64,000 bases of DNA. Origin: Escherichia coli (GTDB lineage: Bacteria; Pseudomonadota; Gammaproteobacteria; Enterobacterales; Enterobacteriaceae). The stretch is from NCBI RefSeq assembly GCF_003334385.1, contig NZ_QOWN01000015.1; one strand, 5' to 3'. The position numbers and the translations under genes are program-made. Below, one piece after another: positions 28,691-64,000 of this stretch. The notes below the pieces were generated by a model, which was not told the origin of the DNA, did no database searches, and saw only the letters and a program-made list of their open reading frames with translations. The first letter of the stretch is position 1. Every line of letters starts with the position of its first letter.

Positions 28691-29422
28691 TTACTGTGGG
28701 AACCACTGGTCACTGATTTTTTGATAAGTACCGTCAGCTTTAATTGCTGCCAGCGCGTTATTCAGTTTTTCCAGCAGGGCTTTGTTATCCGGACGTACAG
28801 CGATGCCCAGGCCGGTGCCAAAATATTGCGGATCGGTCACTTTCTCAGTAGCAACACCAAGTTGTGGATTGGTTTTCAGCCATTCGTTTACCACCGCTGT
28901 GTCACCAAATACCCCATCAATACGACCATTTTTCAGATCGATAAAGGCATTCTGATAACTGTCATAAGAGACAGTTTTCACTTCCGGGTGCTGATCCTGA
29001 ATATATTTCTGGTGCGTAGTACCGTTTTCCATCCCAATACGTTTGCCTTTCAGATCGGCAAACGTTTTGTAGGTATCTTTTTTGGCAATCACGACGGCTG
29101 AGTTTTCATAGTAGGGCGTGGTAAACGATACCTGTTTGCTACGCTCCGGGGTGATATCCATACCGGAGATTACGGCGTCATATTTTCTGAATTTCAGGGA
29201 CGGGATCAGGCTGTCGAACGCGTGATTAGTAAAAGTACATTCTGCCTGCATTTGTTTGCACAAGGCTTTTGCCAGATCGATATCAAAGCCGACAATCTCA
29301 TTATTAGCACCTATAGATTCAAAGGGTGGATAGGTGGCTGAAACGCCAAAATTGATTTTCTCTGCGGCAGAAGCACCGAAAGTAAAGGAAGCAAGTAAAG
29401 CGGCAAGAACTAACTTTTTCAT
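28691..29422 (-). CDS. artJ: Arginine ABC transporter periplasmic binding protein ArtJ
   Basis: ORF 28691..29473 trimmed to ATG (243 aa); paralogue of ArtI. Confidence 0.92.
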   Translation of the reverse strand: MKKLVLAALLASFTFGASAAEKINFGVSATYPPFESIGANNEIVGFDIDLAKALCKQMQAECTFTNHAFDSLIPSLKFRKYDAVISGMDITPERSKQVSFTTPYYENSAVVIAKKDTYKTFADLKGKRIGMENGTTHQKYIQDQHPEVKTVSYDSYQNAFIDLKNGRIDGVFGDTAVVNEWLKTNPQLGVATEKVTDPQYFGTGLGIAVRPDNKALLEKLNNALAAIKADGTYQKISDQWFPQ

Positions 29423-54818: not shown

Positions 54819-55002
54819 AAATTGTTTTGCTACCAAACCTCATGGGTGGCAACGGGGCGCTACTATAGGGAGTTGGAGTAAAACGGTCAAGAAGAATTTT
54901 AATGATAATTATTGTTTGCTCATACTGTAAACAAGTTGTGCAGTATATCTACATCGAGACAAGTTACGGACTTATACTTCCAAAGTACTTCATACATATC
55001 AC

Positions 55003-61014: not shown

Positions 61015-61441
61015 TCAAATTCTCCCGTCATTATCACCTCTGCTACTTAAATTTCCCGCTTTATAAGCCGATTAAATGATGAATAAACGCCCCTGTTAAT
61101 GAATATCTGGCATGTTGTACTAAAAATCGATGTTTTGCTTTGACAATCCCCTGGTGTTTTGCGAAAACATTCGAGGAAGAAAAAAAACAGTATTCTTATA
61201 TGCGCATAACCATGCATGTAAATACCATGTTTACCGTGCTAGTGAAATCTACGTATGGCGTGGACAGACGCCATTCGTGATGTCGATAGCTGCCACAAGG
61301 CAACGGTCTTCTCACCGTAGACCCAGGCATTGCGCGCCGTGAATCTTCATGATTTCGGTCTATCGTGACGGGTAGCGACTCTGAACAGTGATGTTTCAGG
61401 GTCAGACAGGAGTAGGGAAGGAATACAGAGAGACAATAATA

Positions 61442-61936
61442 ATGGTAGATAGCAAGAAGCGCCCTGGCAAAGATCTCGACCGTATCGATCGTAACATTCT
61501 TAATGAGTTGCAAAAGGATGGGCGTATTTCTAACGTCGAGCTTTCTAAACGTGTGGGACTTTCCCCAACGCCGTGCCTTGAGCGTGTGCGTCGGCTGGAA
61601 AGACAAGGGTTTATTCAGGGCTATACGGCGCTGCTTAACCCCCATTATCTGGATGCATCACTTCTGGTATTCGTTGAGATTACTCTGAATCGTGGCGCAC
61701 CGGATGTGTTTGAACAATTCAATACCGCTGTACAAAAACTTGAAGAAATTCAGGAGTGTCATTTAGTATCCGGTGATTTCGACTACCTGTTGAAAACACG
61801 CGTGCCGGATATGTCAGCCTACCGTAAGTTGCTGGGGGAAACCCTGCTGCGTCTGCCTGGCGTCAATGACACACGGACATACGTTGTTATGGAAGAAGTC
61901 AAGCAGAGTAATCGTCTGGTTATTAAGACGCGCTAA
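61442..61936 (+). CDS. lrp: Leucine-responsive regulatory protein Lrp
   Basis: ORF 61388..61936 trimmed to ATG 61442 (164 aa). Confidence 0.95.
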   Translation: MVDSKKRPGKDLDRIDRNILNELQKDGRISNVELSKRVGLSPTPCLERVRRLERQGFIQGYTALLNPHYLDASLLVFVEITLNRGAPDVFEQFNTAVQKLEEIQECHLVSGDFDYLLKTRVPDMSAYRKLLGETLLRLPGVNDTRTYVVMEEVKQSNRLVIKTR

Positions 61937-61976
61937 CACGGAACAGGTGCAAAATCGGCGTATTTTGATTACACTC

Positions 61977-61992
61977 CTGTTAATCCATACAG
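61977..61992 (+). promoter_or_regulatory. LexA box (SOS operator) in the lrp-ftsK intergenic region
   Basis: CTGT-TAATCCAT-ACAG fits CTGT-N8-ACAG, about 80 nt upstream of ftsK start. Confidence 0.7.
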
Positions 61993-62070
61993 CAACAGTA
62001 CTGGGGTAACCTGGTACTGTTGTCCGTTTTAGCATCGGGCAGGAAAAGCCTGTAACCTGGAGAGCCTTTC

Positions 62071-64000
62071 TTGAGCCAGGAATACACTGAAGACAAAGAA
62101 GTCACATTGACAAAGTTAAGTAGCGGCCGCCGCCTTCTGGAGGCGTTGCTGATCCTTATTGTCCTGTTTGCCGTCTGGTTGATGGCTGCCTTACTAAGCT
62201 TTAACCCTTCGGACCCCAGCTGGTCGCAAACGGCCTGGCATGAACCTATCCATAATTTAGGTGGGATGCCCGGTGCGTGGTTGGCAGATACGCTGTTCTT
62301 TATTTTTGGCGTGATGGCTTACACCATTCCCGTCATTATTGTCGGCGGTTGTTGGTTTGCCTGGCGTCATCAGTCCAGCGACGAATACATTGATTATTTT
62401 GCCGTTTCGCTACGCATCATTGGCGTTTTGGCGCTCATCCTTACCTCCTGTGGTCTGGCGGCAATCAACGCTGACGATATCTGGTATTTTGCCTCCGGTG
62501 GCGTCATTGGCAGCTTACTAAGCACTACGCTACAACCACTGCTACACAGTAGCGGGGGAACTATTGCGCTGCTCTGCGTTTGGGCAGCGGGCCTGACGTT
62601 GTTCACCGGTTGGTCATGGGTGACCATTGCTGAAAAACTCGGCGGCTGGATTTTAAACATTCTCACCTTCGCCAGTAATCGTACCCGTCGCGATGATACC
62701 TGGGTCGATGAAGATGAGTATGAAGACGACGAAGAGTATGAAGATGAAAATCACGGCAAACAGCATGAATCACGCCGTGCCCGTATTCTTCGCGGCGCGC
62801 TAGCGCGTCGTAAACGGTTGGCGGAAAAATTCATTAATCCGATGGGGCGGCAAACAGACGCTGCGTTGTTCTCCGGTAAGCGGATGGATGATGACGAAGA
62901 GATTACCTACACTGCACGCGGTGTGGCTGCCGACCCGGACGACGTCCTATTTTCGGGCAATCGTGCAACGCAGCCAGAATATGACGAATACGATCCATTA
63001 TTAAACGGTGCGCCAATTACCGAACCTGTCGCTGTAGCAGCTGCTGCTACCACGGCGACACAAAGCTGGGCTGCGCCGGTTGAACCTGTGACTCAGACGC
63101 CGCCTGTTGCCTCTGTTGATGTTCCACCTGCGCAACCTACAGTAGCCTGGCAGCCTGTACCGGGTCCACAAACGGGAGAGCCGGTTATTGCTCCTGCACC
63201 GGAAGGTTACCCACAGCAGTCACAATATGCGCAGCCTGCAGTGCAATATAATGAGCCGCTGCAACAACCAGTACAGCCGCAGCAGCCGTATTATGCACCT
63301 GCAGCTGAACAACCTGCGCAACAGCCGTATTATGCCCCTGCGCCAGAACAACCGGTGGCAGGTAACGCCTGGCAAGCCGAAGAGCAGCAATCCACTTTTG
63401 CTCCACAGTCTACATACCAGACTGAGCAAACTTATCAGCAGCCAGCCGCTCAGGAGCCGTTGTACCAACAGCCGCAACCCGTTGAACAGCAGCCTGTTGT
63501 GGAGCCTGAACCCGTTGTAGAAGAGACAAAACCCGCGCGTCCGCCGCTTTACTACTTTGAAGAAGTTGAAGAGAAGCGAGCCCGTGAACGTGAACAACTT
63601 GCGGCCTGGTATCAACCGATTCCAGAACCGGTTAAAGAACCAGAACCGATCAAATCTTCGCTGAAAGCACCTTCTGTTGCAGCAGTACCTCCAGTAGAAG
63701 CCGCTGCCGCTGTTTCCCCGCTGGCATCTGGCGTGAAAAAAGCGACACTGGCGACGGGGGCTGCCGCAACCGTTGCCGCGCCAGTCTTCAGTCTGGCAAA
63801 TAGCGGTGGACCGCGTCCTCAGGTCAAAGAGGGGATTGGTCCGCAGTTGCCACGACCGAAACGTATCCGCGTGCCAACTCGTCGTGAACTGGCGTCTTAC
63901 GGTATTAAGCTGCCCTCACAGCGTGCGGCGGAAGAAAAAGCCCGTGAAGCCCAGCGCAATCAGTACGATTCTGGCGATCAGTACAACGATGATGAAATCG
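62071..64000 (+). CDS. ftsK: DNA translocase FtsK, N-terminal membrane domain and Pro/Gln-rich linker; 3'-truncated by window edge
   Basis: Frame 1 open from TTG at 62071 (GGAG RBS at 62059-62062) to window end; translation (M)SQEYTEDKEVTLTKLSSGRRLLEALLILIV... recognised; absent from ORF track because there is no in-window stop. Confidence 0.9.
   Translation, partial: MSQEYTEDKEVTLTKLSSGRRLLEALLILIVLFAVWLMAALLSFNPSDPSWSQTAWHEPIHNLGGMPGAWLADTLFFIFGVMAYTIPVIIVGGCWFAWRHQSSDEYIDYFAVSLRIIGVLALILTSCGLAAINADDIWYFASGGVIGSLLSTTLQPLLHSSGGTIALLCVWAAGLTLFTGWSWVTIAEKLGGWILNILTFASNRTRRDDTWVDEDEYEDDEEYEDENHGKQHESRRARILRGALARRKRLAEKFINPMGRQTDAALFSGKRMDDDEEITYTARGVAADPDDVLFSGNRATQPEYDEYDPLLNGAPITEPVAVAAAATTATQSWAAPVEPVTQTPPVASVDVPPAQPTVAWQPVPGPQTGEPVIAPAPEGYPQQSQYAQPAVQYNEPLQQPVQPQQPYYAPAAEQPAQQPYYAPAPEQPVAGNAWQAEEQQSTFAPQSTYQTEQTYQQPAAQEPLYQQPQPVEQQPVVEPEPVVEETKPARPPLYYFEEVEEKRAREREQLAAWYQPIPEPVKEPEPIKSSLKAPSVAAVPPVEAAAAVSPLASGVKKATLATGAAATVAAPVFSLANSGGPRPQVKEGIGPQLPRPKRIRVPTRRELASYGIKLPSQRAAEEKAREAQRNQYDSGDQYNDDEI

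Follow-up and report, generated by a model that had tools for sequence, protein, structure and literature searches.

The last 2.6 kb of the window (the whole stretch of Escherichia coli DNA that was analysed, 64,000 nucleotides) contain lrp and then the beginning of ftsK, and this end of the window is the trxB-lrp-ftsK region of E. coli. Many E. coli chromosomes match a 1021-bp stretch of it (61380-62400) at 100%, and the stretch occurs in every one of the 5,426 complete E. coli genomes. Compared with K-12 MG1655, a 161-nt stretch across the lrp-ftsK spacer has a single difference, a substitution among the first 20 ftsK codons. The sole mismatch thus falls inside the coding sequence, and the lrp-ftsK spacer itself is identical to that of K-12. 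The 161-nt alignment also gives an exact coordinate conversion, in which the window position equals the K-12 position minus 871,153. The features of the region are collected in Table 1.

Table 1. Features of the lrp-ftsK region, in window coordinates.
Feature	Position	Strand	Basis
lrp coding sequence, upstream neighbour of ftsK	61442-61936	+	RefSeq annotation mapped to the window
GTGCAA, probable -35 of ftsK P2 (dinH)	61947-61952	+	Conservation; RNA-polymerase-like Reg-Seq footprint at -38..-35
TACACT, probable -10 of ftsK P2 (dinH)	61970-61975	+	Conservation; Reg-Seq positive at -16..-11
LexA (SOS) box, 20-mer TCCTGTTAATCCATACAGCA	61975-61994	.	Sequence, heterology index, published box, Reg-Seq footprint, conservation
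ftsK transcription start site, LexA-regulated, published	61985	+	K-12 933,138, Reg-Seq supplementary files 1 and 11
Stem-loop followed by CCGTTTTA, probable lrp intrinsic terminator	61992-62031	+	Fold, covariation, Term-seq 3′ end
GGAG, Shine-Dalgarno of ftsK	62059-62062	+	Sequence; within CCTGGAGAG, conserved in Enterobacterales
ftsK coding sequence, TTG start, cut by the window end	62071-64000	+	RefSeq start, open frame, conservation

The spacer carries CTGTTAATCCATACAG, a 16-bp palindrome with the core CTGT-N8-ACAG, on the + strand at 61977-61992, exactly where a sequence-only reading of this DNA had placed a LexA box. The distance from the end of the box to the TTG codon of ftsK is 78 nt, in agreement with the "about 80 nt" of that reading, which had also proposed scoring the box by its heterology index. 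We calculated this index with a Berg-von Hippel matrix re-derived from 17 E. coli SOS boxes (Table 4 of PMC3009722, ftsK excluded); the training set differs from that of Lewis et al. 1994, so the values given here are not theirs. The 20-mer 61975-61994 has an index of 9.96 on one strand and 11.4 on the other, or 9.7 with the symmetrised matrix, and is the top scorer among the 127,962 20-mers of the whole window. The leave-one-out index of accepted boxes ranges from 0.4 to 12.8, the accepted weak boxes being those of uvrB (10.1), dinB (11.2), polB (12.4), and dinG (12.8), and the ftsK box falls in this functional range. Judged from its letters, it is a fairly weak LexA box with several mismatches to the consensus TACTGTATATATATACAGTA: TCC replaces TAC on the left, GCA replaces GTA on the right, and the centre contains G+C.

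How much can such a score prove? When the 134-nt lrp-ftsK spacer is shuffled, none of 5000 versions scores as well. An equally good score occurs in 7% of shuffled 64-kb windows, and a single sequence alone is thus no proof of function. By itself, CTGT-N8-ACAG is not significantly more frequent in the window than by chance: it occurs twice, 0.68 copies being expected, and two or more turn up in 19 of 100 shuffles.

Two other LexA-like matches in the window were considered and rejected. The only other exact CTGT-N8-ACAG, CTGTCATAAGAGACAG at 28959-28974 (+), falls within the coding sequence of artJ and most likely arose by chance; its 20-mer (28957-28976) has an index of 13.6. The second-best index in the window, 12.9, belongs to TATTGTTTGCTCATACTGTA at 54910-54929, which has neither CTG nor CAG and is therefore probably not a LexA site. 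Coordinate mapping alone assigns this 20-mer to the interval from infA to serW, a tRNA-Ser gene.

The box is located at a promoter that has been described in K-12. Of the two ftsK promoters, the first (P1) is located within lrp and is not required; the second, the SOS promoter dinH, is essential (PMC4080785, for dinH citing Dorazi & Dewar 2000). The published start site falls within the LexA box, and TACACT stands 2 nt 5′ of its CTGT. GTGCAA is 17 bp 5′ of TACACT and belongs to an order-wide conserved block, CAGGTGCAAAA (61944-61954). Among the loci listed, TACACT is kept in essentially all of the 54 aligned Enterobacterales loci, one Serratia having TATACT. The arrangement GTGCAA-N17-TACACT probably represents the -35 and -10 hexamers of P2, an assignment drawn from conservation, from the Reg-Seq footprints, and from the start site. 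TACACT occupies -15..-10 relative to the published start site, slightly farther upstream than usual, and this shift means that the start site or the hexamer assignment may be 2-3 nt off. A possible one-base offset in the Reg-Seq coordinates likewise alters the fit of the -39/-38 and -16..-11 signals to the hexamers. As a separate observation, essentially all of the 54 Enterobacterales lrp-ftsK spacers keep CAGGTGCAAAA and TACACT, a stricter conservation than promoter hexamers typically show.

A different promoter, TTGATT (61965-70)-N17-TACAGC (61988-93), was rejected, since its -35 is not conserved and its -10 would fall 3′ of the published start site. A simple promoter and terminator scan of 61300-62300 called neither the P2 promoter nor the hairpin described below. 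Its rules demand stronger hexamers and a longer T-run than are present here, and its result is uninformative either way. Nothing relevant was returned by a literature search for "ftsKp" promoter names.

In Reg-Seq, LexA at ftsK is treated as a gold-standard, experimentally validated, high-evidence site; the start site at 933,138 is "known to be regulated by LexA", and a LexA repressor site was recovered at -8..+4, which in window coordinates is 61977-61989, that is, the box. Base by base, the signal resembles that of a repressor at -8, -6, 0, +1, +2, and +4, and that of RNA polymerase at -38..-35 and -16..-11. A strongly repressor-like value at -39 was also seen and suggests that one up-mutation is possible in the weak -35. 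In a later study the repressor footprint at ftsK was reported to be lost on addition of hydrogen peroxide. The 25-mer ACTCCTGTTAATCCATACAGCAACA is found here exactly as listed for the SOS box of UV-induced ftsK (PMC3009722, Table 4). Expression of ftsK goes up in the SOS response (PMC4080785, citing Wang & Lutkenhaus 1998), and ftsK is included among the genes with a known SOS box (PMC6590174). The earlier suggestion that a LexA operator makes ftsK damage-inducible is well founded, given this published box and footprint and a spacer identical to that of K-12 dinH/P2.

How widely has this box been kept in other phylogenetic lineages? Species-representative genomes were scanned with a degenerate pattern for the Lrp C-terminal peptide TYVVMEEVKQ, an anchor that does not depend on the box. 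This gave 120 lrp loci from Enterobacterales and from other gammaproteobacterial genera (e.g., Vibrio, Shewanella, Aeromonas, Haemophilus), with ftsK directly after lrp in 110 of them. TCCTG(T/G)-N8-ACAG is present at the equivalent position in all 53 free-living Enterobacterales loci, with an index of 6.5-11.7 and a distance to the ftsK start of 54-143 nt across the order; these representatives range from Escherichia to Yersinia, Photorhabdus, Morganella, and Arsenophonus. The box is missing in one of the 54 Enterobacterales loci, that of Pantoea sp. Nvir (L055), a stink-bug symbiont with a reduced genome, where the best index is 19.0. This loss is consistent with a decaying SOS regulon in a symbiont whose genome is reduced. 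The spacer of the same symbiont retains the TTG start and the ribosome-binding site despite the lost box.

Outside Enterobacterales the picture is different. No LexA-like box was found in any of the 47 loci of other genera that have an lrp-ftsK spacer; their best index is 14.6-26.5, no better than in coding controls of the same length, whose mean index is about 20-24. In the Pasteurellaceae loci sampled, ftsK begins at or over the lrp stop codon, and there is no spacer.

Within Enterobacterales the arms CTG and ACAG of the box are fixed, and the central 8 bp and the 3′ flank are variable (TTAATCCA, GAATTCAT, TTTATTCA, GTATCTAT, and others). Fixed arms around a variable centre are the signature of a protein operator and not of an RNA stem. 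CTGG occurs in place of CTGT in some genera. The strength of the box also differs among genera (loci compared with 61975-61994 include L016, L029, L060, L114, L089, and L074): the index is 9.7-11.1 in Escherichia, Citrobacter, and Enterobacter versus 6.5-7.8 in Yersinia, Serratia, Hafnia, Edwardsiella, and Photorhabdus. These differences suggest that the tightness of ftsK repression may be tuned in a lineage-specific manner.

Immediately beside the box lies a hairpin. In both the minimum-free-energy and the centroid fold it has a 14-bp stem (61992-62005 paired with 62010-62023) and a GTAA loop. Among 30 distinct Enterobacterales sequences all ten core pairs show compensatory changes, and 96.6% of cells are paired versus 33-59% with the partner slid; none of 500 shuffles reaches the observed values. 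Term-seq places an RNA 3′ end at K-12 933,176 in two conditions, which is window position 62023, the last base of the stem. The bicyclomycin ratio of this 3′ end is about 1.03 and its Rho flag is "No", so it is not Rho-dependent. The tail that follows the stem in E. coli, CCGUUUUA, has four U only, and the tail is not conserved beyond the Escherichia/Enterobacter group. A scan of 61300-62300 against Rfam (E<=1) gave no match, and the hairpin belongs to no curated RNA family. In the simplest reading, the hairpin either terminates lrp transcription, its most likely role, or protects the 3′ end of lrp. The Term-seq supplement lists another strong RNA 3′ end on the + strand, at K-12 932,430 (window 61277), 5′ of the lrp coding sequence and just past a hairpin GGCGTGGACAGACGCC (about 61255-61277) in the lrp 5′ untranslated region; transcripts may end early or be processed there, within the long lrp leader.

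The hairpin is 7 nt 3′ of the LexA-regulated start site and spans +8..+39 of P2 transcripts. With the start site upstream of it, every SOS-induced ftsK P2 transcript carries the hairpin and must pass it. This arrangement allows a tentative proposal, which we regard as possible but on balance improbable: the hairpin could act as a built-in attenuator or 5′ stabiliser that sets FtsK output from P2, and the 3′ end at 62023 could come partly from an aborted P2 leader of about 39 nt rather than from lrp mRNA ends only. If this were true, then the hairpin would be a second, post-initiation layer of control on ftsK, conserved across Enterobacterales.

The ftsK reading frame begins further downstream. 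The GGAG of the ribosome-binding site is separated from the TTG codon (62071-62073) by 8 nt. An in-frame TAA is located at 62053-62055, 18 nt 5′ of TTG, with no other start codon between them, and the frame is open from TTG to position 64000, the end of the window. RefSeq places the first base of ftsK at the equivalent of 62071 in K-12 and also in a strain whose sequence here matches the window completely. In 53 of the 54 Enterobacterales loci the start codon is TTG, Morganella having ATG, and both TTGAGCCAGGAA and the ribosome-binding site CCTGGAGAG are nearly invariant in these loci. Between the upstream stop and the TTG, 36 of the 54 loci have no further in-frame start candidate. Other in-frame starts on either side of it shift position between genera, and TTG alone has a fixed position; indels that are not multiples of three are found just 5′ of it across Enterobacterales. 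A literature search on the FtsK start found no N-terminal peptide or initiation-profiling data. Annotation and comparison together support TTG at 62071 as the probable start of ftsK, as the sequence-only reading had proposed together with its GGAG. That reading had also noted that ftsK was absent from its track of open reading frames. The frame runs off the end of the window; the program that listed open reading frames here omits those that leave the window, and the first track probably lacked ftsK from the same cause.

We consider it nearly certain that LexA controls the ftsK P2 promoter (dinH) of E. coli through the palindrome at 61977-61992, its operator, and that FtsK is translated from TTG 62071. 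The sequence, the score, the position relative to the published start site, and the conservation come from the present analysis; LexA-dependent repression and damage induction are taken from the literature. Could the palindrome instead be a chance CTGT-N8-ACAG match that LexA does not bind? The frequency of the bare pattern, about as expected, the comparable scores in 7% of shuffled windows, and the other copy in artJ, itself probably a chance match, are what this explanation would lead one to see. It does not account for a box held in position in 53 of 53 free-living Enterobacterales with invariant CTG...ACAG arms and a variable centre, nor for the lack of any spacer shuffle that scores as well. 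The published footprints, moreover, are repressor-like exactly over the box and reportedly lost with hydrogen peroxide, and ftsK is UV/SOS-induced according to the literature. The chance explanation is effectively already refuted, and we give it hardly any credence.

The immediate surroundings of the palindrome raise two other explanations. It is situated in the lrp 3′ UTR, it abuts a conserved terminator-like hairpin, and an RNA 3′ end was mapped 31 nt downstream, and on these grounds it might function at the RNA level, within the lrp terminator or 3′ UTR, or else be the site of a different DNA-binding protein. Its arms are only 4 nt long, however, and are conserved in sequence without compensatory change, whereas the adjoining hairpin covaries in all ten pairs; there is also no Rfam match. 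The conserved letters are precisely the LexA-critical CTG and CAG at LexA spacing, and the footprint behaves like that of a repressor relieved by an SOS-inducing treatment. We judge this explanation very improbable as a whole. The sequence-only reading had further pointed to a CTGT-containing stretch at 61997-62030 as a possible weaker LexA half-site. In this explanation the half-site would cooperate with the main box, and CAGTACTG and TACTGTT do superficially resemble the letters of a LexA half-site. The best index in 61985-62060 is 21.5, however, which is background (the mean of shuffled spacers is 20.95), and Reg-Seq is without repressor-like signal beyond about +5. The CTGT letters are the 3′ arm of the hairpin stem, which changes between genera by compensatory substitutions and ends at the mapped RNA 3′ end. 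This part of the earlier reading has to be abandoned, the chance that a second half-site exists being very slight.

As the LexA operator of P2, the box would reach from just 3′ of the probable -10 hexamer TACACT across the start site. From this position over the start site we infer steric occlusion, in which a bound LexA dimer blocks RNA polymerase or open-complex formation. After DNA damage, RecA-stimulated self-cleavage of LexA would free the promoter, and ftsK transcription would rise. A weak box would give partial repression, which may suit an essential gene that needs basal expression. Translation of FtsK would then begin at TTG 62071, 8 nt past GGAG.

With ftsK under LexA control, the response to DNA damage is tied to chromosome dimer resolution and to the closing of the division septum. 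The connection has been known since the 1990s, and in this respect nothing here is new for E. coli. The comparative additions are modest. Enterobacterales share the operator, TACACT, the TTG start, and the hairpin beside the box as fixed features, and these are absent at the same intergenic position in the sampled Vibrio, Shewanella, Aeromonas, and related loci. Another modest addition is that the SOS-induced transcript has to cross a terminator-like hairpin. The locus may also serve as a positive control, in which a reading of sequence alone picked out a LexA box that is weak but real and a start codon other than ATG.

The closest known system is dinH/ftsK P2 of K-12 with its LexA box TCCTGTTAATCCATACAGCA, and it is the same element: the spacer is 100% identical, and the box, the start site, and the downstream gene are the same (Lewis et al. 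1992/1994, Wang & Lutkenhaus 1998, Dorazi & Dewar 2000, via PMC4080785 and the supplement of PMC7567609). The regulatory region does not differ from K-12 dinH at all; the strain is not K-12, with one substitution early in ftsK, and several other E. coli chromosomes match it at 100%.

Among other SOS genes, polB (dinA), dinG, and dinB likewise have a single CTG(T/G)-N8-(A/C)CAG box at the core promoter, with leave-one-out indices of 11-13 versus 10-11.4 for ftsK. In contrast to these three, the ftsK box serves an essential cell-division gene that needs basal expression and not a dedicated repair gene, and it is placed in the 3′ UTR of the upstream gene, beside the terminator hairpin of that gene. 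The LexA box of sulA (sfiA), TACTGTACATCCATACAGTA, has the same right half ATCCATACAG as that of ftsK, and both boxes tie DNA damage to division. However, the sulA box is strong, with a symmetrised index of 5.8 versus 9.7 for ftsK. Without damage sulA is tightly off, and it encodes a division inhibitor, whereas ftsK is modestly repressed and promotes chromosome clearing and division.
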